64,000 bases of DNA from Ginglymostoma cirratum. Its lineage: Eukaryota. Position 1 is the stretch's first letter. Each line of letters starts with the position of its first letter. Below the pieces are notes generated by a model. That model searched no databases and was not told the origin of the DNA. It saw nothing but the letters and a program-made list of their open reading frames with translations. This document shows, in pieces, positions 1,367-57,119 of this stretch. The position numbers and the translations under genes are program-made. The stretch is from positions 18,590,215-18,654,214 of the forward strand of contig JAHRHZ010000058.1 in the NCBI GenBank assembly GCA_024137785.1, written 5' to 3'.

Positions 1367-1534
1367 GTTCCTGCTTCTCCAATGACCCTCCCAGGAATTG
1401 CCCACATGGTTATTATCCTGATTCTACTGAACCAAGAGGCTGTAGGATTTGTCCTTGTCCAAGAGGTGCAGGGTGCACTGTGACACCGGGAACAACAGAC
1501 GTGGTGTGTGTGAGCTGTCCAGCAAAAACAATGG
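1367..1534 (+). CDS. LAMC2: Laminin gamma-2 exon (end of remodelled LE module plus start of next LE); first exon in window
   Basis: catcag|GT...ATG G|gtaagc, 168 nt, phase 1/1. Translates (G)SCFSNDPPRNCPHGYYPDSTEPRGCRICPCPRGAGCTVTPGTTDVVCVSCPAKTM(G), resembling the gamma2-specific GDCYSGDENP...CPIGFYNDP..PRSCKPCPC segment. Missed by the ORF track. Confidence 0.88.
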
Positions 1535-3122: not shown

Positions 3123-3356
3123 GTAACCGGTGTGAAATGTGTGAGGAGGGATACTTTGGTAACCCACAGGCAGGTAGATCCTGTCAACCTTGTCAATGTA
3201 ACAACAATGTGGATCCCAACTCAGTTAGTTATTGTGATCGGTGGACTGGGGAATGTCGAGGATGTCTGTACAACACTGCAGGACACCACTGTGAGAGATG
3301 CAAAGATGGCTTTTTTGGAAATGCACTTGCCTCCAATCCTGCTGAAAAGTGCAAAC
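3123..3356 (+). CDS. LAMC2: Laminin gamma-2 exon, LE modules including the nidogen-site-homologous module
   Basis: ttccctag|GT...AAA C|gtaag, 234 nt. [77 protein letters not shown]. Confidence 0.92.
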
Positions 3357-4440: not shown

Positions 4441-4616
4441 CTTGTAACTGTGACCCAAGTGGTTCTTGGTCCTTACAGTGCAGGGATGATGGAACATGTG
4501 ATTGCAAGTCAGGAGTCTTTGGAGCTAAGTGTAACCAGTGTGCAGGGGATACCTATTACAATGGCACCACAGGTTGCCAGGAGTGCCCAAGCTGCTATCA
4601 AGCAGTAAAAAGCAAG
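4441..4616 (+). CDS. LAMC2: Laminin gamma-2 exon, last LE module plus CxxC start of the coiled coil
   Basis: ttttacag|CT...AAG|gtaggt, 176 nt. CNCDPSGSWSLQCRDDGTCDCKSGVFGAKCNQCAGDTYYNGTTGCQECPSCYQAVKSK. Confidence 0.92.
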
Positions 4617-7131: not shown

Positions 7132-7288
7132 GTAATGAAACACAAGAATGTGGTTAGAGATCTGGAAATTCTAATTACGAAAGTGAAGACAAATGGGAAC
7201 CCATCAAATGACAAGGACTTTGATGAAAGATTGAGGAAAGCATCAGTGGTCCTCAACAAAATGATGACTGACGCTAAAAAAACAGAAA
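7132..7288 (+). CDS. LAMC2: Laminin gamma-2 coiled-coil exon
   Basis: gttcag|GTA...GAA A|gtaagt, 157 nt. VMKHKNVVRDLEILITKVKTNGNPSNDKDFDERLRKASVVLNKMMTDAKKTE. Confidence 0.9.
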
Positions 7289-8121
7289 GTAAGTTCTTAT
7301 TTTTGCTTGGTGACTTTAAAGGTTGTAAGATTTTTAGCATAAAATACAAGCGTAAAGCAATTTTCTCCCCCTTCATTATCATTTGATCTCCTTATGTTTT
7401 CCCTTCTCGATCCCAATCTAAATGGATTTTCTTTGATTGAAAAGCGACTTGCTCCAGGGCACTGCTAAATCTCCTTGTAGCGATGTATGAAAATGCAAGT
7501 CGACTTTCTTATGAAAGTACTTCTTGGAATCTTACTGGGTGTTAGTAGTTCTCTGGATCCTTTTTTAGCTTAAGCTAGCATGGAGGTAGTTTTTCTTTTG
7601 CTTCACCTTATTGACAAAGTTTTGTTTTTTAAAAATTGCCTTTCCCAGGAGATACCATCACAGTGTGATGGAGTTTGTGGTGCTAGAGGATAGTAAGCAC
7701 AGAGGCATAATGTTTCTCTAGTCTTGCCCTGCTGGTCATTTTTGTATGCTCATATACATTAGCTGGCCTCAAGCAGCTTATCCTTGGTAGATTCACCAAG
7801 CCATTTTGCCATAAGACATAATACAACCAAGCCCAATCCTGATACCCATTTAACATCTATCATTTTTCCAGTATGGTTGTACCCAGCTTGCACTCACTGG
7901 CTGAATTCACAGGCTGCTGCGGTCATACGGTACCCTTATCAGTTCAGAGCAACTAATGTGAGGTGAATGGAGTCTGGGATCCTCCTAGTCTACATAGCAA
8001 AAAGAAATAAGATGACCTATTAGAGTTACCAGGAAGAAATGAAATGGGGGGATCTTCAGAAGATAAACTCAAGAATGAACAACATTTGGCTGCGGCAGTA
8101 AAGATCAAATTCTTTTTACAG

Positions 8122-8327
8122 TGGATGATGAAAACAATCTTGACCAATTGAAAAATATTAACAAGAAGTTGGGTGTTGAGACAAGTCGCCTGAACAATAT
8201 AGGGAAATCTGTTGATGAGACTCGGAGGTTGACAGTATTGTATGAAGATCGCATTCGGAATACAGAGAAGTTGCTCAGCAATGTCAGGACAAAGATCCAG
8301 GAAAGCAGGACAGAACTGAACCGAATG
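8122..8327 (+). CDS. LAMC2: Laminin gamma-2 coiled-coil exon
   Basis: tttttacag|TG...ATG|gtaagc, 206 nt. DDENNLDQLKNINKKLGVETSRLNNI...QESRTELNRM; phase matches neighbours. Confidence 0.9.
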
Positions 8328-9783
8328 GTAAGCCCTCATGAGTCAAAACAAGCACTTTTTCTTTAATTTGAAGGTTAAAAACACAATTAGTAGCCTACAT
8401 GTTTATAAAATAGAAAGGACAACAGTAAGGACACAAATGTCGTCAACGTAGTGAAAGACCCAGGGCAGTCCTGGCATTTTAAAATTCTAGTAATTAATAA
8501 ACATTACACCAATGGTAAATGTGTGAGACATGTAAGTTATGACACAGTCTGTGAATGAGATATAATTTCATAAATGTCATAGCCTGTAGGTATTGCTTTG
8601 TTTCACGTTATGATACAATCTTAATGGAAGAATTATGTTTGAAATTCATGTTGAGCCATTTGAGTGTTAGTACATAGCTAGATATTCTGTTCCCATGCTG
8701 TGTGTGTGCTCAGAGGGAGTGCATGTAAAATAGGTCAGGTAGATAGCCCACCAGCTACCCACCCTCCCTTCATAATATAGATGGGACCTGAAAGGCACCC
8801 ACTAAATACAAAGGCCTCAGTTAGTCAAATATTGCCCACTTACGATTGTTGAAAAGGTAGGGAGGGAAGGGATTACATCTGCTGAGAGCTGGGGAGTTGC
8901 CTCTGATCATTAGAGATGGTTTCGTCTTTGATTTTACCCCACGTTGGACCTCCCTTTCTGGCTTTAACCCTGTTGCTCAAAACCCCTGCTCCCCTCCCAA
9001 GGTGCCATCCCCGCTTGGGACTTACATGGGTGCAGATGGCATGATCTTCTTTGTGGCACTGCTTGCTCCCACTACTGTGATCTGGTATTGCTGAGACTGT
9101 AAGTGTGCCTGCCAATCTGATTGGCCGACAGTCCTGAAGGGTCAGATCCCCTTCCATTAAGAGACGGAGTCTGATCCTCAGTCTGTTTAGGCTGCTCATC
9201 GCTGGTGCTGGCTTTTTAAAAGTCCTGTTTCCAGGGGAATGTTCTTCTGGTGGGGGCTGTTGGGTTGGGAGCTGTGAGGTGCAAGCAGTTCTATCCCCAA
9301 CCCCAAGGTTGTAAAATCCAGTCTCAAATTATGGAGACATGACATCAAATTATGAGACAATGCTGCAGACTGCTTCTCCTAAATCCATGTCAAAGAGTCA
9401 CACACAGCTTCACATGAAATGCTGCACTGCTTATTTTGAAACTGTGTCATATATACCAAGACTGTAACCAAATTCAAGGCCGGTTCTGTACTGAGTTTGC
9501 TGATGTCAGCTGGCCTGTTACCATAATTAACTCATGTAGCACTAGATTAGCATCAGAGAATGAAAGGATTTCATTCTTATTAATATAGAAGGAAGCCTGC
9601 AGGAAAACGTGTTTAAGTGGAATGAACATTTGCTTATCAAAGAAACAAAGGATTGCTTGCTCCCAGTGAAAGCGTAATTCAGCATTTTTTGGAAGGAAAG
9701 GAATTTTGTTTTGCTAACTTTAAATGTTTGGATAAATGAGAGCTGGTTGCCAAACTAAATAAGTGCAATGTTATTTCTTGCAG

Positions 9784-9860
9784 CCATCTTTACCTACGGG
9801 TCCTGTTGGAGGCCACAACCTGGTGGGTCTAGCAGATGAAGCTCGAAGATTGGCAGATAA
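9784..9860 (+). CDS. LAMC2: Laminin gamma-2 coiled-coil exon
   Basis: tcttgcag|CCA...AA|gtaaga, 77 nt. PSLPTGPVGGHNLVGLADEARRLAD(K), the gamma-chain LAxEAxxLA motif. Confidence 0.88.
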
Positions 9861-9983
9861 GTAAGAGTGGTTTCTTTTATTTGCAAGCTGCCCTCCAGCA
9901 CTTTTCCTATTCTTAGTTTCATCTCACAACATCATAGCATGGAAAAGTTAAGAACGTTTTCACACTTGCTTTGTTTTATTCAG

Positions 9984-10121
9984 GCATGTAAGAGACGCAG
10001 ATAACATAGAACAGTTCAGCAGAACTGCCAACCAGTCAGCGTTTGAGGCCCTTGAATTAATTACCCAAGTAATCAAAGATGATCAGAAAACCATGGAGTC
10101 CATCAACCTGCTAAATCAGCA
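9984..10121 (+). CDS. LAMC2: Laminin gamma-2 coiled-coil exon
   Basis: ttattcag|G CAT...CA|gtaagt, 138 nt. HVRDADNIEQFSRTANQSAFEALELITQVIKDDQKTMESINLLNQ. Confidence 0.88.
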
Positions 10122-10195
10122 GTAAGTGAGACTGAATTTTGATGTGAAACATGTAAGAACACTAATTTGAATACTGAATACTTGTTTAATAGAGA

Positions 10196-12790
10196 GGTAG
10201 CAAGAACTGCAGATGCTGGAGTCAGAGATAATACAGTATGGAGCTGGAGGAACACAGCAGGCCAGGCAGCAACAGAGGAGCAGGAAAGTTGAATTTTTGA
10301 GTCGGGACCCTTCTTTAGAAATGGGGGAGGGGGAGGGGAGCTCTGGAATAAATAGAGAGAGGACGGTTGGGGCTGGGGTAGCTAGGTGGGATGGTAACAG
10401 GTGAGTGCAGGTACGGAGTGGTGGAAATTGATCAGTGAGGTGGGAGGGGTGGATAGATTGGAGAGAAGACGGACAGGTTGTGTCAGGTCAAGGAGGAGGA
10501 GATGAGAAGGAGGGTTAGTCATGGGATGAGGCCGGGGATGGGGAGATTTTGAAACTGGTGAAATCCATGTTTAGGCCATCGGACTGTAAGCTCCCGAGGC
10601 AGAATATGAAGTGCTGCTCCTCCAGTTTGCGGGTGGTGTCATTGTGACACTGGAGGAGGCCCAGGATGGACATGTCACCCAGGGAGTGGGAGGGGCAGTT
10701 AAAATGGTTCGCGAGTGGAAGGTGTTGAGAGAAACAAAGTTAATGTTTCAAGTTCAACATGACCTTTTTTAGAACTGAAAAGTGTTGGAAAATTATTTTT
10801 TGATATATTTGACAGAGGCAGAGGAGGGGCAAAGGGAACAGATAGTGTGGAAGCTCAGTGCAAAAGACAAAATGGTTATTAATGGGGATGGAAGAGAAAA
10901 AGAGATGTAAAATGGAAGTAAATTAAGGCGTGAAAGGGAGAAAACATTTTTTCTCTATTGACAGCAAAGTAAAAAAGACACAAACAAAATAAGAGGGTGA
11001 GTTGAATGAAGGGGAAGAGAATATAAGAAAAATAGAAAACAGACGTCTTGTGGCCAGGCTCTGAGATTATGGAATTCAATACTGAGACCTCGAGGATGCA
11101 AGTGCTTTAGCAGAAAATGAAGTGAGCTTGTGTCGTGCTTCATTGGATCATTGTAGCTGACCCAGGACAGAAATATCAGTATGAGTGCAAGATGTTTATT
11201 GAAACTGCAAGGAACTGGAAAGTCAGGGCCATTCCTACAGACAGAGTGGAGATGTTCCACAAAGTGGTTACCCTGCCTAAGTTTGGCAACACCACTGTGA
11301 AGGAGACTGCATTGTGGACAGTGAATGCAGTAGACTAGGTTGAAAGAAGTACAAGTGAAACATTGCTTCACCTGGAAAGTGTGTGCGGACAGCAAGGAGG
11401 GAGGATGTGAATGGGCAAGTGTTATACCTTCTGTGAATGCATAGGAAGGTGCTATGGGTGTCTGAGTGAGTGCTAGGAGTGATGGAGCACTAGGCCAGAG
11501 TGTCCCAGATGGAATGGTCACTGTAGAATTCAGAGTGAAGGGGAAAACAGTGTTTGGGGTCCTGGGCAGCGAAGAGGGAAGAGGTGAATGGGCAATGGTA
11601 CACCTTCTTTAATTTCATAGGAAGGCGCCCTGGGGATAGTGAGGAAGCATTAGGAGCAATTGAGGAGTGGACCAGTGTGTTACAGAGAGAACAGTCCTTG
11701 AAGAATGCTGATAGTGGAGGGGAGGGGAAGATGTTTATAAAATGTAGGGTATGCAGGTTTGTTTGATCTTTGTAGGATAATAGGTCAGCACAACATCGAG
11801 GGCCGAAGGGGCTGTACTGTGCTGTACTGTGCTGTACTGTTCTTTGTTCTATGTGTTTGGTGGTCGCATCCTGCTGGAGGTGATGAAATGGTGCACGAGG
11901 ATCCTTTGAATACGAGACTAATGGGGTGTAAAGTGACGACAAGGGGAACCCTATCCATGTTCTGGGAAGGACTGAGAGCAGAAGTGTGGGAAATGGGTCA
12001 GAGGCAGCTGAAGGCCCTATCAACCTCAATGGGAGGGGTAATCCCCCTGTTGAGGAGAAAGGTAATGGAAGGTAGAAACATCAGAACAGAAATGACAGAG
12101 ATGGAGAAACTGGGAAAAAGAAATGGAATCCTTGCAGGAAGCAGCATGTGAGGAGAAGTAATGAGGTAATTGTGGGAGTCAGTGAGCTTTGAAATAGTAT
12201 CAGTGAACAGCCTATCGCCAGAAATGGAAACAGTGAAGTCAAAGAAAGGAAGGGAAGAGTCAGAGATGGACCAGATGAAGGTGAGAGAAGGATGGAGATT
12301 GAAAGTAAAACTGATTAATTTTTCCAATCCTGGATGAGAGCAGGAAGCTGTTTCAAAGACATCATCGATGTATCAGGGAAAACATTGTAGGTGGGAACCC
12401 AAGTCGGATCTGAACAACAAATTACACCACAAAGAGACAGGCATAACTGGGGACCCTGCGGATGGATACCCATTGTGACACCTTTGACTTGGAGAAAATG
12501 AGATGAATTTAAGGAGAAGTTGTTCAAAGTGAGAATGAGTTCAACAAGGTGAAGGAGATGGATAGAGACTGTGCAGGCCTCTTTTCAAGGAAGAAGCAGA
12601 TAGCCTTCAGACCGTCCTGATGGGGAGCGGATGTGTAGAGGGATTGTACATCTATAGTAAAGAGGAGGTGACTATGGCCAGAAAACTGACATTTGTAGAA
12701 CAGACATAAAGCACCAAAAGGATCAAGAATATAAGTGGAGAGTGACTTAAGAAGAGATGATAAGAGAGAGTCCTGATAGGAAGAAATAAG
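10196..12790 (-). mobile_element. Penelope-like retroelement(s): decayed RT plus GIY-YIG endonuclease, two nested 3' ends with hammerhead relics
   Basis: Minus ORFs carry PLE motifs LLFTIDVQSLYTS, NNFSLNSSHFLQVKGVTMG, LPFFDFTVSISGDRL (RT) and FTCTSFNLVYCIHCPQCSLLHSG...HFVEHLHSV (GIY-YIG with Cys motif). Terminal repeats at about 10196-10320 and 10727-10780. Confidence 0.85.
11740..11855 (+). mobile_element. Short CR1-type 3' tail inserted in the Penelope element
   Basis: ...cacaacatcgagggccgaagggg-(ctgtactgtg)x2-ctgtactgttctttgttctatg. Confidence 0.65.
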
Positions 12791-13436
12791 TTCATAAGAA
12801 CATAAGATATAGGGGCACAAAACAGGAGCATGCTGAAATTTTGGGTCTGCCGTTCTGTTTGTGGATTGTAAGAAGAGCAAGGCACTTATGATGCAGTAAT
12901 GGGTTCTAATCCAAACACATAGAACTGAGACAAGCAGCATATACTTGATTTTTTAACTCTGATATGTTAAATGTTGTTCATCACCAACGGAACATGTGTT
13001 GATTGTTCCATTAAGTATTCCATGCTGTCTTCTAATCCAGTTGGAACTATAAAGCAATGTGCCAATTATTTAACATTGTTAAGGAAGGAGCAGCTGCAAT
13101 TGTTTCTCTATCGGCAAAAATACTATAAACAGTGCAGTTGTACATTTGTCTGGCAGTGGAGACAGCCTTGATCCACTTTGGAAAATTTGTAGATGGTGAA
13201 TAGAGTTCAAGATGTAACACAATATGACACAGTAAGGCCTAAGTATAAGAGTGAAGTCAAGTCTAATGCAACCAGGAAAAGGAAAGCTGTCTCATTAAAT
13301 CATCCAAGAAATAGTGGAATTTAAATTAATATATTAGTAGGTTATTTAATGGGCCAATGCTTTGTTTAAAGATATAACTAAGCTCCACTGCGTGTACATT
13401 TTATTAGCATGACTGTAAGAAATTTTGTTTTGTTAG

Positions 13437-13581
13437 GTCTAAACAAATCAGTGACCTGGCAGATGAACTAGATGAACAAGCAAACAGAATAACTGCAAAA
13501 GCGCAGAAAGTTAGTGACCGGGCTCAGCGGATTTACAATGAACTGAACAGCCTCCCTACAATTGATATAGACGTCCTTGAG
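13437..13581 (+). CDS. LAMC2: Laminin gamma-2 coiled-coil exon
   Basis: tttgttag|G TCT...GAG|gtaagt, 145 nt. SKQISDLADELDEQANRITAKAQKVSDRAQRIYNELNSLPTIDIDVLE. Confidence 0.88.
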
Positions 13582-14359
13582 GTAAGTAATATTTGCAAGT
13601 CTGTTTATTGGATGTGGGAGGTGATCTATCCTGAGAATTAGTTCTATGATTTTATGCGGCTGCTTAAACCGATGAAACCTTTCATCTCAAACCAAAGAGG
13701 CACCAATTAACGTTGGAAGCAATAGGGAAGATACTGGAAGGCAAATGAAAAGATATATCCATAATTTCTCTATTATGATAATTACATAGCCATTCGTCAA
13801 CAATGATTGTGAACTGAATTCCTTACATAGAACTAAGATGGGGGTTCTTGGTCTCTGTTATTATTGAAATGGCTCATTAAGTCAGTGTACTGCTCAATGT
13901 GATATAAATTCATAACCATCAGTTAAGCAAATTTCAGATGTAACCTCACAGCTTATGCTGCATTAGCTGAACTCACATGAAGTATATGTGAGATGCTACA
14001 ATTGGCTTCAGCTTCTCTAGCCTAGAGTGCATTAAAAGGAATTTGTTTCTCATGGTTGATGACTATATAATTAATTAAAATAGATGTATGATTGTCTGGC
14101 AAGGACAGTATCAGACCCAGCTGACCCACCTTAATGGATGAGTAACCTACACTCCAGCTTCAGATGGGGAAAGACACTCACTTCTTTTACAATGGGCAAG
14201 AGGAACTTGCAGGAGATAGTGCCTTCATAAAAGTTCCTATTATTTCGAATTCATTTAAAAGCAAGTCCATTGAATTGACATATTTAGAATTATGAACCTA
14301 TTTAAACTTTGACTTTCCCCCTCCCAATATTAGGGTCACTGCATGGATGTGCAGTGAAT

Positions 14360-14932
14360 CTTAGAGTCATAGAGCCATACAGTATGGAAACAGACCTTTC
14401 GGGGGTCCAACTAGTTCACGCCGACAATGTTCCCAAATTAAACCAGTTTCACCTGCCTGCATTTGGCCCATATGCCTCCAAACCTTTCCTATTCATGTAC
14501 TCATCCAAATGACTATTAAATGTTGTAACTGTACCTTCATCCACCACTTCATCTGCCAATTCATTCCATATGCTAAGCATTTTGCATAAATAGTGGCCCT
14601 CCTGTCCTTTTTAAATCTTAAATCACCTTAAAAATACACCCCCTCATTTTGAATTCCCCCACCTTAGGCAAAAGACCTTTGCTATTCACCTTATTTATGC
14701 TCCTCATGATTTTATAAACCTCTATAAAGTCACCCTTCAACCTCCTACGCTCCAGCGAAAAAAGTCTCAGCCTATCCAGCTTATTTTTAAAATTCAAACC
14801 CTCCATTCCCAGCAACATCTGGTACTTCTTTTCTGGACCTTCTCCAGTTTAATAATGTCTTTCCTATAACAGGATGACCAGCACTGCACGCAGTACTCCC
14901 AAAGAAGCCTCACCAACGTCTTATACAATCTC
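14360..14932 (-). mobile_element. CR1 LINE 3' fragment
   Basis: Minus ORF 14618-14818 LDRLRLFSLERRRLKGDFIEVYKIM is the CR1 ORF2 C-terminal signature; tail at 14360. Confidence 0.85.
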
Positions 14933-14986
14933 AGTGTATATTGAAATGTTGTATTTCCAAGTAACTACAAAAATGTGGTAACCATT

Positions 14987-15230
14987 CAGGGATGGCACAG
15001 TGGTCAGCACTGCTGCCTCACAGCACCAGGGATCTGGGTTCAACTCCATCCTTGGGCGACCATCTGTGCAGAGTTTGCACATTTTCCCTGTGTCTTCATG
15101 GGTTTCCTCTGTGCAGGCTAGGTGGATTAGTCATTGGAATTACAGGGATCGGGTGGGATGCTCTTCGTAGGGGTAGAGTGGACTTGATGGGCCAAATGGC
15201 CTGCTTCCACACTGTAGGGATTCGATGATT
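14987..15230 (+). mobile_element. HE1/V-SINE-like tRNA-derived SINE
   Basis: A-box tggcacagtggtc, B-box ggttcaactcc, V-domain-like gagtttgcacattttccctgtgtc...gggtttcctc, CR1-derived tail gggccaaatggcctg...gattcgatgatt. Confidence 0.8.
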
Positions 15231-15420
15231 TCACGAAGGTTCTTTCATCCTCTCCATCTTGTCTTGCTTTGTGAGGTGAGCCCAGATGGCTGACGGTAGT
15301 TGTGAAATTGGGAATAAATACAGAACAGGTAGAGATGACGTTTAAACGTATAATAATGAACATTCTGAGGTTTGCTGGAGCAATCAAAGTGCAAAGTTTA
15401 TCTCTGTTTATACCCCTCAG

Positions 15421-15570
15421 GCTGAAGCAAATGAACTCCAACTCAAAGAAAGTGCCATCGGTCTTGAGCTGAATGGAAAACTTGAATTATACGAAAGATT
15501 GAAGAATAATGTGATGGACTTCCAGAGAGACGTCAGGAAAATTTTAGACAATGGAGAAATAGAGCAAAGG
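15421..15570 (+). CDS. LAMC2: Laminin gamma-2 coiled-coil exon
   Basis: cccctcag|GCT...AGG|gtaaga, 150 nt. AEANELQLKESAIGLELNGKLELYERLKNNVMDFQRDVRKILDNGEIEQR. Confidence 0.88.
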
Positions 15571-16239
15571 GTAAGATCTTCACCACAACTCTGTTAAGTG
15601 AAAGCATTTACTCTGGAAGATTGTTTAATGTGCGATTATTGCTCACTCTGATCAGAGAACTATGTCACTGTTCTAAAAATAAAGGTTGTGCTGTTCTGTA
15701 TGAGATAATATTGTGATAAAACCTGTGCTTCGCTGTTTTGCTGTTTTCCCGCACCAGGATTAACGGTAAAAAAGCTGTTAATAGCGTGTTCATGTTCGTG
15801 AGGTAAATTGCAGTAATAATATTCTTGTTGGTCATGAGCTATTAACATTGAAATAATAAAATATTCTATTTAAACAGCGGTAAGTCTTTTGTTAGATTAG
15901 CCATGATAAAAGATTAGAAGTAAAGCTCTGTTTGACTACCAGGTTACCTTTGCAAACTCAATTCGTTGGCAGTTTCTCACACCAGCTATAGTTTTACTCA
16001 ATCGAACTTGTTGCAATGGTTACACTGAATGTCTTGTTTCTATACATGCCTGTCAATTATAGAACTGAAATATGGAGTATTAAAGGGTGTAGCTAGTAAA
16101 TTTGCACTCATGCTTAAAGCTTTGCTCTTGGAAGCTGATAGGCAAAATTTGGATACAGTGGGCAGTGGATCATTGACATTAATGATAGATCTCAGATCAT
16201 ATTGATCACCAAGCCCAAATCCCTAATATATATTTCTGG

Positions 16240-16742
16240 TTCTTTATTCATCCATGGATGTAGTTTTGCTGCCTCGGCCAGAATTTATCGTAGTTTAGAG
16301 TCAACCACATTGCAGTCCATTTATCACAAGCACCCAACATTTCTTCTCACAAACTTCATCCCACATTGATAGCAGGATTGCAGATCACACCCACTAATGA
16401 CATCTTTCCACTACTATTCCTCATCTTCACCAAAACAATTGTACACCCTGATCTCCTGGACCAAGCTCATCTCAAACTATTACACCAATCCTTAATTAAC
16501 AGCGCCACTCCTCCTTATGTAGGCCCGGCTAGCAAGTGTGGTAGATTTACATCCCTAAAGGACATAAGTGAACCAGATGGGCTTTTACAACAATTGTCAT
16601 CATTAGGCTAGCCTTTTATTCCAGATGTTTATTGAATTGAAATTTCACTGTTTAACATGATGGGATTCAAAACCATTTTCCCAGAATATTAGCCTGGAGT
16701 TCTGGGTTGCTAGTCTATGGACATTACTATTACACTACCGCT
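16240..16742 (-). mobile_element. Deu-domain/SacSINE-like SINE remnant (interrupted)
   Basis: Contains agagtcaaccacattgc and ccctaaaggacataagtgaaccagatgggcttttacaacaat. Related pieces at about 22170-22460 and 57607-57705. Confidence 0.5.
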
Positions 16743-16964
16743 TATGAATTGATCTCTCCCCTAACCTAGCATTCCAGTTCACTTCACCTAGCTGAGCTTT
16801 CATGCCCACATAATTAACTTTGTCTAAATTTAAATGCTAGCCTCAGACTCACTTTTCTCCCTGTCAATTTGGATGTAGAATTCACTCAGATGAGTGGTTA
16901 CTATTAAGCAGTTTGTAGACCATATCCACTTGTCTCTTCTTTTCCTTACTGTTCCTCATCTTCA

Positions 16965-17320
16965 CATAAAAACAAAGAAAACAGGAGCAGGAGGAGATGA
17001 TTTGGGCCTTTGTTGTGCCATTCATTATGATTGACTGATCATCCAACTCAATAGCCTGTTCCTGCTTTTCCCCCTTATCTTTTGATCCCTTTAGCCCCAG
17101 ATGCGAAATACAACTCCTTCTTGAAATCATACAATGTTTTGGTCTTGACTGTTTTCTGTAAGTGGTGAATTCCACAGGCTCACTACTCTCTGGGTGAAGA
17201 AATGTCTCCTTATCTCAGTCCTGAATGGTTTAGCCTGTAACCTTAGACTGTTCTGGACTTCACTGTCATTGGGAATTCCCTTCCTGCATCTGGCCTGTTT
17301 AGCCCTGTTAGATCGCATAA
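16965..17320 (-). mobile_element. CR1 LINE 3' fragment
   Basis: Minus frame LRLQAKPFRTEIRRHFFTQRVVSLWNS, the CR1 C-terminal motif. Confidence 0.8.
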
Positions 17321-17802
17321 ACCAATTTTATATCCTGTTCTCCTGAACCAAAGCCATCTCTAACTGTTGGACCAATGCTACCCTTAATTAACTGTGCTCT
17401 CCCCCACAACCATGACCTGGCTTCCTTGATCATTGTCATATAACTCTCAACATTCAGGATCTAATCCTTGTCATCATGCAGCCACATTGGATCATATTTA
17501 TCAGTCTCAATATTCATTATCAATTAATTTACTTTGTCAAGAATGACGTGCACATTCAGATACAAAGCCTCTAGTTTTGTCTTTTTGCTATCATTGTAAC
17601 ATCTAGTCTGCTCTAATCTTAGGTTTATTCTTGTTTCCCCTTTCTGCCAGTCTCTGACCTTCATTTCCATATTGCTGTTCTGTACTTTTGCCTTGACATT
17701 TACTGAAGCTTAATCCTCTCTCAAGCATGCAGATAAGTTTAATTTATGATTTACTTTTTACTGTCTGTTTGTATAAAGTTGACAAATTTCTTCTCACTGT
17801 AG

Positions 17803-17917
17803 TCTGCTGACTTGTTACATGCCAGAGCGAATGCTGCTAAATACCTGGCTGAAGATGCTGTTAAAAAGGGCACATCCGCATTGGAGCAATTTGATCGTAT
17901 CTTAGCTAACTTAAGAG
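17803..17917 (+). CDS. LAMC2: Laminin gamma-2 coiled-coil exon
   Basis: cactgtag|TCT...AGA G|gtatgt, 115 nt. SADLLHARANAAKYLAEDAVKKGTSALEQFDRILANLR. Confidence 0.9.
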
Positions 17918-19060
17918 GTATGTAACCGGCCTTAATAATTTTAGAATGAAATTGTATTTGGATAACAACTGTTTCATCCACATGGAAAGATTACTATGTG
18001 TTTTACATCAGCCATTTAATTAGCCATCATTCCTTGTTTTTCTCTTGTAAGGTATTTCCTAGTTGTCTCAAAATATAAAGAACAGATTTGCCTCCATTCA
18101 TAATGTAACTGTCTATATGTAAAAGCCTTATGTTCATGACAATATAAATATCATGGTTATTGTTGATTATATATTTAAAAAAAGTAGCAAATCCAGAAAG
18201 AATCCTGAGTCTTCTTGAGAGAACAAGAAAACAAATTTTCTTAAGCTACGATTGTACACATTTTCCGGTGGAGAGTAGTTGAAGAATTCATTCCAAAGAT
18301 ATAATTCAAGAGGCCACCTCATCCCCACAACCCCACATACCTTCCCCTCCCCCAGAATATCTTCATATTCATGCCCACTTTACAGATACAAGTGTCATGT
18401 TAAAATCCCTGTCACTGTCTCTAGGCTAGCAGTCTTGGAAGTTTGAGACTGAGAACAATGAGGATAGAAATTGATACTCCAACTGACTCCAAAGTGTGTA
18501 AGTCTGTCAGCAGGTGTGAAGTGGACCATACTTTCCAAGTGAAAGGGAAAGAGAAAGCTATTGTAATCTGATAGTTTCTGTTACTCATACACTCATAACG
18601 ATATTTTCCATTTATAGCAATATGGAATAAATGGCTTTCTTGGCCCCTTTTTTTTCTCATTCTGTAATTTCAATATTTTCACATAATGGGTAGTGAAAAT
18701 GTTTGGTAGGAAGTGTCTTTGAGATTTGGGCTGAAGATACATTACCAGTGGGCCTTTGCCACATTTAGTGTGGGTTCGCTTGATGCTGACATTAGATGCA
18801 TGGCTTGGAAAATGTTCCATTCTCCAAAGCTAGCATGTTAAATCTCGCAATGCATGAAAATAAATCAGAAATAAGTAATTTATCAAAAGAAAACAAGATG
18901 AGCAGAGGAAAGATTGAGTATTTAATCTCAATGAATATCATTGCTTGTGACTCTTTTTGTTTGAGTAAAATATTGAATTAGATCTGAAGAATGTTCTTAT
19001 TAAGTGTGACGATGTGAACTATTCCAATCTCATTAGACGCTGTTTGGTTTGATTTTGCAG

Positions 19061-19260
19061 ATTTTAACACAAGAGTGATCAGCAATAAAACAGCTGCTGA
19101 AAATGCTTTGAATAAAATACCTGATATCATCAAGACCATTGATGGTGCCAATGCGAAAACTAACCAGGCTGAGAATCAACTGGGAAATGCAGGAACAACT
19201 GCCAATGAGGCAAAGAGGAAAGCAAGTGAAGCAAATGTTATTGCTGCTGATGTTCTGAAG
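19061..19260 (+). CDS. LAMC2: Laminin gamma-2 coiled-coil exon
   Basis: ttttgcag|AT...AAG|gtataa, 200 nt. (D)FNTRVISNKTAAENALNKIPDIIKTIDGANAKTNQAENQLGNA...ADVLK. Confidence 0.9.
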
Positions 19261-20409
19261 GTATAATTTTTTGAAATTCATTTTCAACTCTATAAGCAGC
19301 ATGAAGTCAAAAGTTAGCAAATGTAGCCATCAATTTGCTTCGCAACTTTTTGTTTCTTTGCATGATCTTGAGTCCATGATTGGTTGACTCCTTGTTGAGT
19401 CTTTTGGTTGTTGTCACCTTTCATGGAAATCTTCAAAAATGCAAAAGGAACAATGAGTATTCTATTGATTACAAAAGTCTTCCAATCATTTCATCAGTTG
19501 CCATCAGTTTTATCATTTAAATGTCTCTTATGCTGCATTCCGTATGGTATTCTGTTCTTGAAGATCTTCATTGAATGCACTTCACCAGTTTTTCTTTGTT
19601 AGGCTCATCTTCTTTTCCTATCTGGTAGCGTCTATCCCACTACCACTCTGGCAGGGCTGTATGTCTGGGAGACAAGATACACATCCTCCCAGCCCCAGTC
19701 ATCTCTCTGTTACAACGTTCTGTCAGTGCCTCTAACCAGCCCTCTCTAACACTTTTTCATTGGTCATCTTTTCTCTTCTAGTGCTGCTCATGACCGCGTA
19801 CTGGTAACACTGTTGAGAGACATCGACACACGTGGCACCTTTACAGTTCTCTTCCATGTCTTAGTGACATAGGCTGCAGTTGGTATTCCAATGGACTTAG
19901 AGAGTCACAGCTTTGAGGCCACTTTGTTGTTTTTGGATGTCACCCTGTGGAGACACCGGGAGACTAATACTACTTTGCTGAACCTTGTATTTGTATCAAT
20001 CTGTACATTATCCTCCCTGAGGAGGTTACTTCCAAGGAGGGGAAGTGAGTGACACCCTCAGGTTTCTGTTACCTGATGGTAATGGGGTGAGGGGGATGAG
20101 CCTTGTTACCATCCAATCATCCTCATCTTGGTCTTCTCACAGCAGATGAGGAGACCGGCCTTGACACTGCTCATGACCTGGGATTGTGTTTTGCTGCGCA
20201 CATGATTCTGCAACAGCAAAGCCATTTTGTCTGTCAAATCCAGTTCCATCCATTGCCATGGGATGCCAACATCAGCACCCACTATTGTTTTCTTCATGAT
20301 GAAATCAAAAACCAATACAGTATGCTGATGCTGTCTGGCCTGCTGTGTTCCTCCAGCTCCACACTGTGTTATCTCTGACTCCAGCGTCGGCAGTTCTTAC
20401 TATCTCAGA

Positions 20410-21030
20410 GAATGCAGCCTTGCTGTATTCGGGTGATGATGTTAAAGGTGTCCATTGTGCTAGTGCTAGTCTCAATGCAGCAGACGGAGTCATGATATAA
20501 GGCTTTGAAGGTGTTAATATAGTGCTCCAGAGTTGAAAACTGTCTTGTAATGTCCCAGAGTGACTACCAATGGATACTATCAAAAGGCTTCTTGAAATCA
20601 TTAAATTTATGAACAAGTGGCTCTACTGCATGATGTTTCTGAGCATAAAGACCTGCTCACAGCATGACCTACCACTCCAGAAAGCTGCCTATTCTTCAGA
20701 AAAGGGGCCATCTACTTTGGCTTCCAATCTGTGGAGCAGCAGAGTGATGAAGACCTTGCCGGGTGCTGAGAGCAGGGCTACACCCCTCCAGTTGTTGAAG
20801 TTGCTGAGGGTTCTTTGCTTAGGCAGATTAGCTATTACTCCTTACCTCCGATCATCTGGGGTATCCTCTAAAGTCCAGATCTGGTACAATGGGTCTATGA
20901 GCTGTGCTAATATGGTGATTTTTGGATATGTTTCACTGAGCTGCTGGTGTCTCTTTGATCCCAAATTTCTTGCTCTTCAGAATTTTGATAGCTCTTTGGA
21001 GATCTGATCTGGCACTTTTTCCTAATTTGA
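20410..21030 (-). mobile_element. RTE-clade LINE RT fragment, decayed
   Basis: Minus translation with stops: IWTLEDTPDDRR*GVIANLPK...NNWRGVALLSAPGKVF...EE*AAFWSGRSCCEQVFMLRNI. Confidence 0.7.
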
Positions 21031-21395
21031 CATTTAGTTGCTGAAATGTATTAAGTTCATCAAACTTGAATGTGATGGACATTGAAATCTCCCACCCAGA
21101 GTATGTCCTGTGCCCTTTTTATCCTCAGTGCCTCTTCCAATTGATGTTCAACATGGAGATATACTGTTTCATTGGCTATGGGATGGTGGGGCATTAAGTG
21201 GTAATTCAGGCGGAGATTTTCTTGTCAATGTCTGACCTGATGTTATGAGATTTCATAATGTCTAGAGTCAATGTCAAGGACTCCTGTGCCAACTTTCTTC
21301 TAATGGTACACAGTTGTTTAAGGTTTTAGCAAAGATTTGTAGCCCGGGTTGTGGATGAGGTTGTTGACTTGCTCGCTGAGCTGGCCTGTTTTCGT

Positions 21396-21435
21396 TCAGA
21401 CGTTTCATCACCATGCTAGGTGACATCATCAGTGG
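21396..21435 (-). ncRNA. Minimal type I hammerhead ribozyme motif
   Basis: Minus strand cca-CTGATGA-t-GTCACC-tagcat-GGTGAT-GAAAC-GTC-tga: both catalytic boxes, a 6-bp stem II, palindromic ACGU helix III and a GUC cleavage triplet. Confidence 0.7.
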
Positions 21436-21623
21436 ACCTTCCGATGAAGCGATGTCATTCTACTCTGTTTGGAATTTATACCGTCCGGTCTGTTATGGTG
21501 AGTACTGTCATTTCTGTATACAAACCTGCACAGAACAAAAACCAGAAATGACACTATTCGCCATAACAGACCAGTCGGTATAAACTTCAAGCGGAGTAGA
21601 ATAACATCGCTTTATTGGAGGCC

Positions 21624-21663
21624 TCGCTGATGATGTTATCTAGCATGGTGATGAAACGTCTGA
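21624..21663 (+). ncRNA. Minimal type I hammerhead ribozyme motif (sense to LAMC2 pre-mRNA)
   Basis: tcg-CTGATGA-t-GTTATC-tagcat-GGTGAT-GAAAC-GTC-tga. Stem II is retained with three G-U pairs. Confidence 0.62.
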
Positions 21664-22049
21664 ATGAAAACAAGCCAGCTCGGTAGGAAAGTCAACAACC
21701 TGTACCCCACTGTGTCTGAGTCTGATTTACTGGTGGGATGGGACATACTCAAACATTGTGTCCGAGTTGTCTGTGACATTGCCTTTAAGATACGATCTAG
21801 GAATATGCCTGTGTCAAGTTGAGGCATGTTTAGCTTGTGCGAAACTTCCCCAATTTTGGCACAAGCCAGTAGAGAGTAGTAAGGTAGACTTTGCAGGGTT
21901 GACAGGGATGCATTTATTGTTTTTATTTCCAGTGCCGAGGTCAATGCCTGGGTATCCATTCAGTCTAATTCATTTCTTTAGATTTTGTAACAGTTTGATA
22001 CAACTCAGTGATTTACTGGGCTATTTCAGAGGGCAGTTCAGAGTCAGCT

Positions 22050-22146
22050 GCAAAGAATGCTGGAGAAACTCATCAGGTCTGGCAGCATCTGTGGAGAGAG
22101 AAACAGAGTTAATGTTTTGAGTCCAGTATGAGTCTTCTTCAGAACT
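22050..22146 (-). mobile_element. Penelope-derived short repeat with a decayed hammerhead core
   Basis: Minus: CTGAAGA-agactcatactggactc-AAAAC-ATTAAC. Confidence 0.65.
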
Positions 22147-23117
22147 GGAACATCAAGAAGGTTTGATTGCTTTCAAAGCCCATCTGGTACACTGCTGTCC
22201 TTAAGAGAATCAAAGTTGCCATTCTTGCTTGGTATGACTCCAAATGCAGCAATGTAGTATGAAAGTTCAAGGGTAGTTGGGGAATTTGCAACAGATGCCA
22301 GGATTCTTTGCCAGGAATGCCAATATCCCATCATAGAGTGAAAAAGATCCAGATTTAATAGTTGAACCTAAATTCCACCAGATGACCCACTGTGGTGAGA
22401 TTTGAACCAATATCCTGGACATCTGGATTATAGTTCCAGTGAGTTTGTCAATACACCAGCACTATCTGTGATCCTTCAATTGCTGGAAGGCAAGTTCAGT
22501 CTGATAGAAAGTTTCATGTTGGATATTGGGTGAAGACAGCATAAGGAACTATCACTCACAGTCGATTTGACTGCCGTACTCATCATCTAGCCTTGCGTAA
22601 TTCTTTCTCAGCATAAATCACCTCCTTCAGCAGACAGGATTTTCTTTTAATATCTCCCTTGCAACTGAAAGTAATCTGGCAAAACTCCAGGATGTCAAAC
22701 CAACCTACAATCTGCATTACTCAATCTTAGCTAGTTGTATTTCATAGATGACAGTTCCAAGGTTCAAGCAGCACAAGAACTATCATGCTCCTTAAAATAT
22801 GTAACCATTTCTGTTTGTGGCTTATCTTTAAATTCCTGTTTATTCCCTTAGCATGTATTTATTCAGCTGTATTTTTCGAAAAATGAGTAAACAAAGCAAT
22901 TATATCTGCTACAAATGTGAACAGTAATAAGATATTAATTTTCATTTCTTCTGCACAGTATAATTTATCACTTCAAAGTCTTATTGAATGGGTCACTGTG
23001 CTTTATATTATCACTTGTTGCAGCCTGAATAAATTTTTGTCCAACAGCATCTCTAATTTTTATGTTGACAATAAACTTCAGCATGACCTTGTGCTCTTGT
23101 TTCAATTCTATTAACAG

Positions 23118-23276
23118 AGGGCTGTGAAATCTTTAGATGACACAGATATGACACTAACTGATGTTGAACTACTGGATGGAGATGTGCAAGATATGTTTGA
23201 GCAGCTAGGACGTGTGCAGACAGACATGGAGAACAAACAGAGATCAGTGCATGGAGATACCGCGATGGCAGAGATG
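23118..23276 (+). CDS. LAMC2: Laminin gamma-2 coiled-coil exon
   Basis: ttaacag|AGG...ATG|gtgaga, 159 nt. RAVKSLDDTDMTLTDVELLDGDVQDMFEQLGRVQTDMENKQRSVHGDTAMAEM. Confidence 0.87.
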
Positions 23277-24309
23277 GTGAGATTTTTTTGGCGCTATTTA
23301 CCCTAATTTACTGAAAGGTTTGTTTTTCTTTCGATGGGGCCACTAAAAAAGACTTGCCGTAATTTGCCCAATTGTTGACTTGTGGGGCAGTCATTGGTCT
23401 CTGCCAAAGAAAGGGAGATATGTAAGTCCAGGAAAGGACAATATAACATTCACAACTCTGTAAGTCTTTTTATTTTAGCACCAAACTATTAGAAGGGAAT
23501 TATTGGGTTGCAAAAGCAATGGGTTTGCTTTGCAGGAAATTTAAATATTTACTTTGTTCTGAAGTGCAGTAGTTTTGTAAGTTTGTAAAAGCAAGGAATG
23601 CAAATTATGTATCCAGCCTGCTGAAGAGACCAAGGTGTGATAGATAAAAAAAATTAAGGTTCTGGAGTAGCAGTTACTGGAGCAAAGATATCAAAATTGA
23701 AACCATAAAGTAAGAATAACTATAAAAGAATTTACTTCTGTTATCTAAGAGTAAGGGCAGGGAACTGGCTCCACCTGCTTTGTGTTATATGGTGGCACAT
23801 GTTGGTTATCCTGTTCGTCCTACTTGGTCTATCTTTTGAAGCTGAAGACTTTCTTTTTAATGCTCCCTCTTGTGGATTACAGTCATTGGACTAGATTTTG
23901 GCTACCAGGTTGGGTAACTCAAGTTGTGAAAAATGCCTCTGGGTAAAATACATACAATATATACAAATATTGATCTGGGCTGAAGATGGCTATCACGTAA
24001 AGGATGAAATCAGGTCTACCAATCCAGAAGCCAGTGTAGTGGTGATCACAGGACAGGCAAATGATGAGGTGGACTGTCTGCATATCTTCGGTGCTCTGGT
24101 TTTCATTCTAGCTGTTTTACAAGATGTTAGATCCTCCAGCTTCACTCCTCACATAACCTCACCCACACACTAAGGCCCTACATAATGTCTGTGCCAAGTT
24201 ATGCCCATACATCATTTGTACAATAACATATAAGACAATGACCAATGAGTTATATGGTAACAATAGCATATGTGGCCTTGCTAAGAGAAAAAAGAACTCA
24301 AATTGCCCA

Positions 24310-24350
24310 GAGATAAAAGGTACTGCAGATGCTGGAGAATCCGAGATAAC
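24310..24350. mobile_element. 41-bp Penelope-family micro-insertion with 9-bp TSD
   Basis: aattgccca at 24301-24309 and 24351-24359 flanks gagataaaaggtactgcagatgctggagaatccgagataac, which matches the start of the 32361 and 10196 elements. Confidence 0.7.
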
Positions 24351-25614
24351 AATTGCCCAATTTTCTGTTGAGAAACAAAAGCTATTTTCCTTTATTCCTA
24401 TTAAAATGTCAATCAGACAGAACTTTTAATGCAACAATGTCAGAAGTTTCAAGCACTTCCCAGATCTTAATTTTATCCAAAATCATTGAAATGTTGACAA
24501 AACAGATCGCAACAAGAACAACTTTATATAGTCCTTTAAAAGGTCAATTAGTCAAGGTTAACAACTCACATCATGCCTTCACTCACCCCTCGTGGCCTCC
24601 TGTACCATCCAAACCAGCCTATGCCCCTGCTATCCAACCCATGGCCTTTACAACTCCTATAGCTATTTAGTGCTGAATTATAACACCCCATGCTGCCCCC
24701 TCACACACTACCTTTTCCTTTACACCCTCCATCCCAACCCATCCAATATCAAGACATGGGCAGATGTCATGGTCCAGTTTGTGATTGACTAAATGTACTC
24801 AGTATCTTTTGGTGAATTCACTATTCAAAAAAAAGCTAAGTTTATAAAAAAAAATTTACTGCATTAACTTCCTTCAAATACTTAATGCCGTATACAAACA
24901 AACATCTGTACTCACAGTTGCATTTCAAAGACTTCACAAGCATTTGACATTTTCAATAAAACTGCAAATTCACAGGGTAATAATTGTGAGATATGTCATG
25001 CAAGACTAAAATCCCAAGCCTATTTCAATTGATAGAGTGACACAGCAATGCCCATTTTTTAAAAACATCCAGATGTTTCTTCAAATATTTGAAGGACCGG
25101 AGCTTTAAGTGCCTTGACAACTCTTTTGACAGCTCCATTGTTTTAATAAATTTGTCCAGTTCTATATAATTTCATGACGACCTTTAACAATCCCAAAGGT
25201 CATTTGACCTCTCCAAAAGGTGTTCTGGGATCATAGAGGTACCTTATTTCCCAGAAAGAGATACCCTATCCCTCTAAAGACTTTATTAATTTTATACCTT
25301 CTTCTATCAGATCTAAAGTGTACAAGTCATATTTTGCACACCCCACCAGCAAAAAACAGATGTAATCAAAGGGAGGTGCTGTTTAACATGTGCAGTCAAA
25401 GTGAACTCCATGAACTATGAATGTGTAAATGACAACCCATCCTCATTCTTTTCTGTGAGAATGGCAGGGACTGGGTGTGGTGATGTGGGAGTAGAGGGGA
25501 TTTTCAGAATCATACTTCTAGCACCATTTTCACCCTCACCACCTGTGCAACAATTCAGGCTAAATGTCTGTTAATGTTTCCCTGGCTTTTGTCACTAAAA
25601 CCTTCCCACCGTAG

Positions 25615-27110
25615 AAGCATAGAAATAGAAACATAGAAAATCAGAGCTGGAGCAGGCCATTTGGCCCTTTAATCCTGCTGTGCACACCCAGCTCAATAGC
25701 GGGCTCCTGTTTCTCCCCCATATCCTTAAATAGCTTTATCCCCAAGTGTTACTTCCAACTCCTTCTTGAAAAACGTTCAATGTTTTGGCCTCAACCACTT
25801 TCTGTGGTGATGAATTCCACAAGCTCACCACTCTCTAGGTGAAGAAATTTCTCCTCATCTCAGTTCTGAATCGTTTTACCCTATATCCTTCGACTGTTGA
25901 ACCCCCCTGTCGACTCCTCTGCCATCAGGAACATTCGTCCTGGTTCCAACCTGCCTAATTCTCTAGAATGTTATGTTTCTATGAGATTCCCCCTCATCCT
26001 TCTAAACTCCAGCAAATAAAATCCTAAACAATTCAATATTTCCTCATGAGTCAGTCCTGCCATCCCAAGAATCAGTCAGGTAAACCTTCACCGCACTCAC
26101 TCTGTAGCAAGAACATCCTTCCTCAGATAAGGAGACGAAAACTGCACAAAAGACCCTATATCATTGCAGCGAGGCACCACTGCTCCTATACTTGAATCCT
26201 CTTGTAATGAAGGCCAACATGCCATTTGTCTTCTTGACTGCTTGCAGCACCTGCATACTTTACTTCAGCAACTTGTGCACGAGGACACTCAGGTCTTGTT
26301 GCACACTCCCCTCTCTCAATTTATAGACATTCAAATAGTAATCTACCCACATTTCACTTCATCTGCCATGTTTTTCCCATTCACTCAGCCTGTCCAAATC
26401 ACACTGAAACATCTCTGCTCCTCTTCACGGCTCATTCAGTCACCAGGCTTTGTGCCGTCTGTAAATTGGAGATATTACATTTAGTTCCCTCATCTAAATC
26501 ACAAGTATATTTTATGAATAGCTGGGGTCCTAGTACTGATCCTTACAGTACCCCACTAGTCATTGCCTGCCATTTGGCAAAAGACCCATTTACTCCTACT
26601 CTTTGTTTTCTGTCTGCCAACCAGTTTTCTATCCATCTCAATAAACTACCTCCAATTCCATGCACTTTAATTTTACACACTAATCTCTTAGGTGAAACAT
26701 TGTCAAAAGACTTCTAAAAGTCCAAATCCACACTTGTCTTCATCAACTCCACCAGTAACATCCTCAAAGAATACCTCAGATGAATTTTCAAGCATTATTT
26801 TCCTTTTGTAAATCCACGCTGACTTTAAATGATTCTGCCAAAGTTTTCCTAGTGGTCAGCTATTAATTCTTTTATATTGAACTCAAGCAGTTTCCCTATT
26901 TCTGACATCAGGATGTTAAACTGAACAGTTTGGGTTATTTTAGAGTGGCCTAACATGGTTTTTGAACATTGGTGTTACATTTGCTGCTTTCCAACCCTCT
27001 GGTACTTTCTTGCTATCTAAGGAAGATTGTAAAATTGTGGCAAGGCCCTTCATTATCTCCATCCCCTCTTTACAACTAGTAACCTGGGATGAAATTTATC
27101 TGGCCCAGAT
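25615..27110 (-). mobile_element. CR1 LINE fragment (about 1.5 kb, decayed)
   Basis: Tail catagaaatagaaacatagaaa at the left. Antisense ORFs 26164-26717 are typical of CR1 RT. Confidence 0.8.
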
Positions 27111-27374
27111 GGCCCACTCCTGTGGGCATGGCCAGTGATTCCAGCACATCTGCCTACCGCTTTCATCACCATCATCCATCTACTGCCTCTATTAATGTTT
27201 CAACATCATCCTCTTCTTTAGTAAACACCAATACAAAGTATTTATTATTCATTTTAGTCTTGCTCCTGTTTTCTTCTCTCTCGGCATCACAGTCTAACAT
27301 TTCTATTCCACCAATATCTTTCAAAATCTGAATGTAGCTAATAATGGGATAATGACCAGATAGTCTATGTGCTG

Positions 27375-27555
27375 TGGTATTGATTGAGGAATAGATATTA
27401 GCAAGGACACTGGGATGACTCCCCTGCTTCTCTATGAAATAGTGTCATGGGATCTTTTACATCCATCTGAACAGTGCACAGTATCAAGCAAAGACAGCTC
27501 CTCTGATCTTCCGTCAGTTCTACTTTGGAATGTCAGCTTCATTTTTATGCACCCA
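27375..27555 (-). mobile_element. AmnSINE/Deu-domain SINE remnant
   Basis: atagtgtcatgggatcttttacatccatctga...aaagacagctcctctga...ggaatgtcagc resembles the recalled Deu core. Confidence 0.55.
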
Positions 27556-27940
27556 GGCTCTTTAGTTTACCACATTTCCCTTTTGATGGAATTAAGGCAA
27601 AGGTTTTTATGGGAGGATTATTCTGTAATAGATGGCATTCGCTGTTACGTCAACGTTCATGTATGACCCTAAACAGTAACTATGCACAGGATTTTTAACA
27701 TTGGAAAGTGAAACCTGGCTCTATCTTTACTTTTCTTGGTTTTTATTTGGAGTGGGTAGCGGATATTGGTTAAGAGCGGGAAGCAAAGTTTAGCTTTCTT
27801 TCCATAAACCCCATTGTGCTAACATCACACTCATCATTCCCATGGAACAGGACAGGCCATCTGATCAAATTAGGAACTGTTTTACTCTGTACCTGTTATC
27901 ACATGGCTCAATGTGTTTATCCTTTCATTTATTGTTCCAG

Positions 27941-28040
27941 ATCACAGCCAATGTAAACGATGCGACCATGAATGTAGCAAGTACACAGGATTCCATTGAA
28001 AAAACAATGGATTTGATAAGCAACCTACTGCTTTCTATGG
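27941..28040 (+). CDS. LAMC2: Laminin gamma-2 penultimate exon
   Basis: gttccag|ATC...ATG G|gtgagt, 100 nt. ITANVNDATMNVASTQDSIEKTMDLISNLLLSM. Confidence 0.9.
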
Positions 28041-30312: not shown

Positions 30313-30566
30313 GTAATGCAGCTGAGATTGATGCTACTAAGTTACAACGTATAGAAGATTCTTTGCAAATCTCTAAAGACCAATTGACCAATGAACTTCA
30401 ATTGAAGCAACAAGAATTGCAGGAAGCTGCTAGAGAACAAAGAGAAGCAATAGCAGCTTATGATCAAGATATTGAGGACATCCGTGGAGCTATTAAAAAC
30501 CTAGAAAACATTAGAGACACTTTACCTCTTGGATGCTTCAACACTGCAGCCTATGAAAGGCCCTAA
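30313..30566 (+). CDS. LAMC2: Laminin gamma-2 terminal coding exon
   Basis: ctttgcag|GT...CCC TAA, 254 nt. Ends IKNLENIRDTLPLGCFNTAAYERP*, the gamma-chain LPxGCxN..E-x-x terminus. Confidence 0.93.
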
Positions 30567-57016: not shown

Positions 57017-57119
57017 TTATCCAGACGTCTTGATGTAGAGCTGATTTTGCAGGATGTAATCAATAACGGGCTGATTCAAATATTCCACCACGTGGCCATC
57101 ACCATGCTGTAAAGCCAAC
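57017..57119 (-). CDS. NMNAT2: NMNAT2 terminal coding exon
   Basis: ttgacag|G TTG...GGA TAA, 103 nt. [33 protein letters not shown]. Confidence 0.96.

Follow-up and report, generated by a model that had tools for sequence, protein, structure and literature searches.

A shark laminin gamma-2 chain that keeps the core residues of the gamma-1 nidogen-binding site

The window analysed here, a stretch of 64,000 nucleotides from Ginglymostoma cirratum, carries the 3' part of a laminin gene that is, in all probability, the shark orthologue of LAMC2, and its LEb3 module retains Asp800, Asn802, Val804 and Tyr819 of the gamma1 nidogen-binding site. The docking site is very probably ancestral in gamma2 chains; Asn802 decayed in several bony-vertebrate lineages, and the non-binding state of mammalian gamma2 is probably a derived one. 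The feature is real, and it is broader and less shark-specific than was first proposed.

The nidogen loop and its exon

The first-pass annotation read N-V-D-P-N-S-V at 3206-3226 on the forward strand, with a Tyr 19 codons beyond the Asp. The translation agrees, with the Asp codon at 3212-3214 and the Tyr codon at 3269-3271. The features of the module are as follows.

3123..3356, forward strand: exon with the end of LEb2 and LEb3, the equivalent of gamma1 III4/LE4 (AG/GT bounds, alignment, spliced contigs)
3206..3226, forward strand: loop a heptapeptide, with Asp800 at 3212, Asn802 at 3218, Ser803 at 3221 and Val804 at 3224
3227..3232, forward strand: Ser805-Tyr806 in place of Gly-Asn (comparison with 54 gamma1, gamma3 and invertebrate chains)
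3257..3271, forward strand: loop c, residues 815-819, with Arg815 and Gly816 instead of Leu-Lys, and Tyr819 (3269-3271) retained

Over the module, the exon aligns without gaps to the nidogen-binding LE region of mouse gamma1 (1KLO, 1NPE and 1TLE; E 2e-34 to 3e-25), and gamma1 numbering can thus be transferred directly. All eight cysteines of gamma1 LEb3 are present. In the six frames of the whole window there is a single D-P-N-x-V and a single D-x-N-x-[VIL]-x14-Y, a uniqueness that, together with the alignment to the gamma1 LE module, argues for homology rather than chance. The predicted fold of the module resembles 1NPE_B (model pLDDT 83, Foldseek E 2.6e-9), a resemblance that is uninformative on affinity.

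In runs X1 and X2, one assembled contig per run joins 1367-1534, 3123-3356 and 4441-4616 at GT..AG ends, with letters identical to those of the window; both contigs come from one study, and one of the runs may be the window's own source, so that they do not serve as an independent indication of tissue or level of expression. The exon at 3123-3356 is spliced, and its letters, Tyr806 included, are genuine. An assembly error behind Tyr806 is ruled out by the identical letters in the spliced contigs of the two runs. The raw-read RNA runs X21 and X22 gave zero reads over the laminin exons, which is uninformative as to tissue.

The gene model and its surroundings

Of the laminin gene, the final 14 exons fall within the window (1367 to 30566, forward strand), and the 5' exons and the L4 exon lie outside it. 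The spliced length of 758 amino acids given in the first-pass annotation was reproduced as an open frame, and the product is 95% identical (720/758) to the Stegostoma orthologue P0002. Beside the exon described above, the model consists of the following.

1367..1534, forward strand: first LAMC2 exon in the window, with the tail of the remodelled LEb1 and the start of LEb2 (AG/GT ends, tblastn match to P0002 of 88%, spliced contigs)
1381..1386, forward strand: Asn-Asp opposite the G434-D435 BMP-1/mTLD cut of human gamma2, with the Asp retained (alignment)
4441..4616, forward strand: exon that encodes the fused last LE module, with its deletion of ~99 aa of the gamma2 type, and the beginning of the coiled coil (alignment, spliced contigs)
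7132..28040, forward strand: ten coiled-coil exons (AG/GT ends, open frame, match to P0002)
7132-7288, 8122-8327, 9784-9860, 9984-10121 and 13437-13581, forward strand: coiled-coil exons 1-5
15421-15570, 17803-17917, 19061-19260, 23118-23276 and 27941-28040, forward strand: coiled-coil exons 6-10
30313..30566, forward strand: last coding exon, with the stop at 30564-30566 and a Glu three residues from the end at 30555-30557
57017..62559, reverse strand: four 3' exons of an NMNAT-family gene, at about 62559-62483, 61469-61368, 58850-58783 and 57119-57017 (NMNAT family, E 1.3e-6)

Human gamma2 is processed by BMP-1/mTLD at G434-D435 (PMC3544776, section 8), and in the shark chain the corresponding cut is predicted to fall upstream of the nidogen module. 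The Glu near the C-terminus of gamma1 and gamma2 is, going by the title of a cited reference, the integrin-binding residue. In LEb2, beside the nidogen module, a deletion of four residues (window ~3160-3180) is common to cartilaginous fishes; the same deletion is seen in the sole aligned bird row, where it is apparently independent.

The NMNAT-family gene lies downstream of the laminin gene, whose upstream neighbour falls beyond the window; it is tail to tail with the laminin gene, and we take it to be NMNAT2 in particular; one of its exons, searched against the PDB, gave no meaningful match. In the rat, Lamc2 sits between Nmnat2 and Lamc1, according to passages of PMC5990391. Elsewhere in the window, the intronic stretch at 4211-4258 has very high read depth in three of four runs and is probably a short interspersed repeat. 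Broken frames at about 1-1200 and at 45761-48082 presumably resemble remnants of a LINE reverse transcriptase.

Orthology of the chain

Over the 758 residues, raw identity runs at 41-44% with five vertebrate gamma1 proteins but at a lower 27-38% with ten bony-vertebrate gamma2 proteins, so that orthology had to be tested. The chain could be an independent, truncated copy of LAMC1 from the shark lineage, in which case a gamma1 loop would be trivial. Besides the raw identity, such a copy would fit with the absence of an extra L4 cysteine, with the complete last LE module and with the source name "laminin subunit gamma-1-like", which is carried by nine of the twelve cartilaginous-fish LAMC2 orthologues (among P0002-P0016). 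In a maximum-likelihood tree of the coiled coil, however, seven cartilaginous-fish chains are sister to bony-vertebrate gamma2 with support of 95/93, and gamma3 forms a separate clade; the tree comprises 32 rows picked from 325 proteins to span the groups, with the motif columns excluded and no tetrapod gamma1 included. A forced grouping with cartilaginous-fish gamma1 is worse by 16.5 log-likelihood units and is rejected by the AU test (p=0.026), and a grouping with LAMC1 or LAMC3 rather than LAMC2 was not seen.

The structure of the chain and its neighbour also argue against a LAMC1 copy. Three changes are shared with all gamma2 rows: the LN domain is lost, LEb1 is remodelled and carries the processing-site Asp, and a deletion of ~99 aa has taken out the LE modules that would separate LEb3 from the coiled coil, with an identical junction in the window and in all gamma2 rows. 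The window exon at 1367-1534 fits the irregular LEb1 pattern of gamma2 with its x-Asp site. In P0002 (1191 aa, with LE and L4 domains), which serves as the 95%-identical stand-in for the full chain, the LN domain (PF00055) is absent and the N-terminus aligns with gamma2. When representatives were searched, the best full-length match from outside the cartilaginous fishes was coelacanth gamma2, at 952 bits over a single stretch. A homologue search with the coelacanth coiled coil returned just itself and one insect protein. A shark-specific copy of LAMC1 is thus highly improbable, and the first-pass identification as laminin gamma-2 is upheld by the tree, the three structural changes and the NMNAT-family neighbour.

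An extra L4 cysteine (human C309) has been described for gamma2 from human to zebrafish. At this position there is a Ser in the ten elasmobranch orthologues examined, and a Cys in coelacanth, gar and tetrapods; in addition, the last LE module is complete in cartilaginous-fish gamma2. In these respects the cartilaginous-fish chain stands between gamma1 and the gamma2 of mammals, and the missing cysteine and the complete module look like ancestral states that would have been altered later in bony vertebrates.

How diagnostic the motif is

Asp800, Asn802 and Val804 are the established core of the gamma1 nidogen site, as set out in parts of PMC4227867 and PMC11260871. In the paralogous module of 13 named beta chains, Asp800 is found in all 13 and Tyr819 in 11, compared to two with Asn802 and none with Val804. 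Since Asp800 and Tyr819 are present in the beta-chain module, Asn802 and Val804 alone are diagnostic. The first-pass annotation had described all four critical positions as gamma1-like, with a difference at 803 only. The four residues are indeed present, but the evidential weight placed on them was overstated, as Asp800 and Tyr819 occur in beta chains and Asp800 also in mammalian gamma2, and positions 805, 806, 815 and 816 differ too. Among 54 gamma1, gamma3 and invertebrate chains, Ala803 is found in 52, Gly805 in 54, Asn806 in 47, Leu815 in 51 and Lys or Arg816 in 54, and the window departs from all five of these near-fixed surroundings. The overall identity of shark LEb3 to gamma1 is 47-62%, as against 54-58% for orangutan gamma2 LEb3. 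Judged by its residues, the resemblance of the shark module to gamma1 is weaker than was first claimed.

With respect to the weight of single residues, Poschl 1996 is said to regard Lys816 as a possible direct contact, and restoring Asn and Val in human gamma2 reportedly brings it close to gamma1. The low affinity of human gamma2 for nidogen is attributed, in the title of Mayer 1995, to two serines at core positions. Further contacts are contributed in 1NPE by LEb2, where the shark chain has lost four residues beside LEb3, and this speaks against full binding. In C. elegans, loops of the form D-x-N-x-I and even D-x-M-x-I recruit nidogen in vivo, as reported in portions of bioRxiv 2022.02.11.479800.

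Distribution of the site across gamma2

Among the cartilaginous-fish orthologues, counted as 12 species with a second Callorhinchus gene model left out, all 12 have Asp800, Asn802, an aliphatic residue (Val, Ile or Leu) at 804, and Tyr819; the strict combination with Val804 is found in ten. Ala803, as in gamma1, occurs in Heptranchias and Leucoraja, and Lys816 is retained in only two of the 12 chains. The protein sets were gathered by similarity to the shark sequence, which favours gamma1-like modules.

The site is not peculiar to cartilaginous fishes, as had been proposed. In the case of coelacanth gamma2 (P0143, UniRef H3ACQ9), the gamma1 site is complete, including Leu815, Lys816 and Tyr819, and by its residues the coelacanth chain is a better candidate nidogen binder than the window protein. 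Gar gamma2 retains Asp, Asn and Val. Of the seven proteins closest to it, two keep D-x-N-x-[V/I], three have lost the site, and two are apparently without the module (P0240 and P0242, in which the lack of LEb3 is either a real loss or a gene-model error). Bird gamma2 (45 proteins, ~37 species) has Glu800 and Asn802 in 45/45, Val804 in 44/45 and Tyr819 in 43/45; the bird Glu800 would be either a retained variant of the site or one fixed inactivating change. The bird LEb3 modules (P0028-P0087, P0134) are otherwise almost gamma1-like. Asn802 was found in none of eight turtle proteins (4 species), one tuatara, one echidna and 28 placental proteins, and mammalian gamma2 as a whole has Asn802 and Val804 in 0/29 proteins each, and Asp800 in 29/29. 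The result is a series from the complete site in coelacanth, through the core only in sharks and an Asp to Glu change in birds, to an Asn to Ser change in turtles and mammals and a fully changed tuatara. The named bony-vertebrate gamma2 chains sampled come from coelacanth, gar, birds, turtles, tuatara, echidna and placental mammals.

A D-P-N-x-V motif that is common and already described in non-mammalian gamma2 would count against the first-pass proposal. The site is indeed common, being complete in coelacanth, kept as Asp, Asn and Val in gar and represented by Asn802 in birds, but no report of the site in non-mammalian gamma2 was found in the full-text literature, most subscription journals, the original mutagenesis papers and supplements being outside the scope of the search. 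Mammalian gamma2 is the basis, in PMC2185082, for the view that laminin-332 has no high-affinity site for nidogen.

Comparison with known chains

The shark chain resembles the mammalian gamma2 of laminin-332 in lacking an LN domain, in a full length of ~1190 aa (P0002), in its remodelled LEb1 with the processing-site Asp, in sharing the same LE deletion, in its C-terminal Glu and in its NMNAT neighbour. It differs in that it keeps Asn802 and Val804, is without the extra L4 cysteine and has a complete last LE. With gamma1 LEb3 (1NPE, 1KLO, 1TLE) it shares the fold, the eight cysteines and the residues Asp800, Pro801, Asn802, Val804 and Tyr819, whereas Ser803, Ser805, Tyr806, Arg815, Gly816, the four-residue LEb2 deletion and the lack of an LN domain in the chain set it apart.

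A further non-gamma1 chain that carries the motif is gamma3, according to sections of PMC2185082, and its nidogen binding is reported in the title of a reference. Like the shark chain, gamma3 is a gamma1 paralogue with a kept loop, and has Val at 799; unlike the shark chain, it is full-length with an LN domain, belongs to a separate clade, and has Gly805 and Lys or Arg816 in 8/8. Coelacanth gamma2 falls in the same orthology group as the shark chain and the site is found in both, but in coelacanth loop a and Leu815-Lys816 are complete.

Ancestry and loss of the site

Parsimony, run per site on a species tree, gives Asp, Pro, Asn, Ala or Ser, Val, Gly, Asn, Leu815, Lys816 and Tyr819 at the root of gamma2. 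The proposal that the site was lost later in evolution is therefore borne out, as the root has the full gamma1-type state. Because of the tree, the structure and the per-site parsimony, gamma2 would have arisen by duplication in the gamma1 lineage, before the split of cartilaginous and bony fishes, and would have inherited a complete LEb3 docking loop. Across 20 bony-vertebrate rows, Asn802 and Val804 change five times each. For amniotes, a history of three separate losses of Asn802 is as parsimonious as one in which a single loss was reversed in birds.

In 13 cartilaginous-fish rows, by comparison, Asn802 has no changes and 800 is likewise unchanged, while 801, 803, 805 and 806 change three to four times each. 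This pattern, with 800 and 802 fixed, 804 conservative and 801, 803, 805 and 806 variable, is suggestive. It is not significant alone, as 20/49 non-Cys positions of the module are unchanged in cartilaginous fishes and ~40% of LE columns are invariant.

Could the loop have been lost early and then copied back from an adjoining LAMC1 by gene conversion? The two genes adjoin each other in rat, as noted above, and the LEb3 of coelacanth and birds is unusually gamma1-like (64-77%). Yet the LEb3 of Callorhinchus gamma2 agrees with gamma1 from the same species at 27/48 non-Cys columns and with catshark gamma1 at 28/48, and mammalian gamma2 is as similar to gamma1 as the shark module is, so that conversion, as judged in cartilaginous fishes, has very little to recommend it.

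Does the shark module bind nidogen?

In gamma1, the side chains of Asp800, Asn802 and Val804 are lodged in the top face of the beta-propeller formed by nidogen G3. Cartilaginous fishes have retained these three core side chains, and the residues between and beside them have drifted. On these grounds the shark module would still dock on nidogen, with an intermediate affinity that would be weaker than that of gamma1 because Gly805, Asn806 and Lys816 have changed. We somewhat favour real nidogen binding by the shark module on the strength of its residues, and, by a narrower measure, expect the module to bind much better than human gamma2 and less well than gamma1. Being on the C-terminal side of the conserved processing site, the module would be retained by the mature chain. 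Collagen IV and perlecan are known partners of nidogen, and the shark gamma2 laminin could then be tied to both through nidogen, despite having no LN domain.

The main rival is that the chain is a gamma2 with ancestral residues at a site that is unused in elasmobranchs, slow evolution having preserved Asp, Asn and Val, and the loss of Gly805 and Lys816 having already removed useful affinity. The surroundings of the core are consistent with such decay, as positions 805 and 816, fixed in 54/54 comparison chains, change four times each in the 13 cartilaginous-fish rows, where their replacements are charged or bulky; Val804 has become Leu and Ile in two species and Pro801 Ser in three, and the invariance of Asn802 is at the 40% background level. 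However, Asn802 changes five times in bony-vertebrate gamma2 and never here (a post hoc contrast, uncorrected for how many sites were compared), position 804 stays aliphatic in 12/12, and the nematode loops mentioned above recruit nidogen although they are unlike mouse gamma1. We consider an unused site unlikely, but the most serious of the alternatives.

It is also conceivable, though improbable, that the site works in vitro and has no bearing on skin, the chain being used in other tissues or trimers and epidermal wiring being unaffected. Mice without the gamma1 nidogen site have no detectable skin basement-membrane anomaly, according to portions of PMC3618921, and the two raw-read RNA runs are without exon reads; against this, the hallmarks of the gamma2 of laminin-332 are kept, that is, the truncated arm, the processing-site Asp and the C-terminal Glu. 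Mouse gamma2 already binds nidogen-1 via L4-LEb1 (PMC3544776), and this binding, together with the lack of a detectable skin basement-membrane anomaly in the mice, reduces the expected effect on epidermal wiring.

Implications

That a duplicate which evolves slowly should preserve an ancestral motif is unsurprising in itself. The natural series of gamma2 chains nevertheless offers a ready set of 56-residue modules for dating the loss and for weighing the flanking residues of a very small, high-affinity interface. Returning to a functional site in the shark chain, we tentatively put forward, as one joint proposal that we hold with somewhat less than even confidence, that the predicted gamma2-nidogen link would be ancestral to jawed vertebrates and kept in sharks, rays, chimaeras, coelacanth and perhaps birds (with Glu800), that it may have been dropped several times independently, with epithelial anchoring moving to collagen VII and others more than once, and that the lack of high-affinity nidogen binding in gamma2 may be a derived, largely mammalian state. 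If this is true, the way in which gamma2 laminins join the basement membrane may not be the same in humans and in non-mammalian models.
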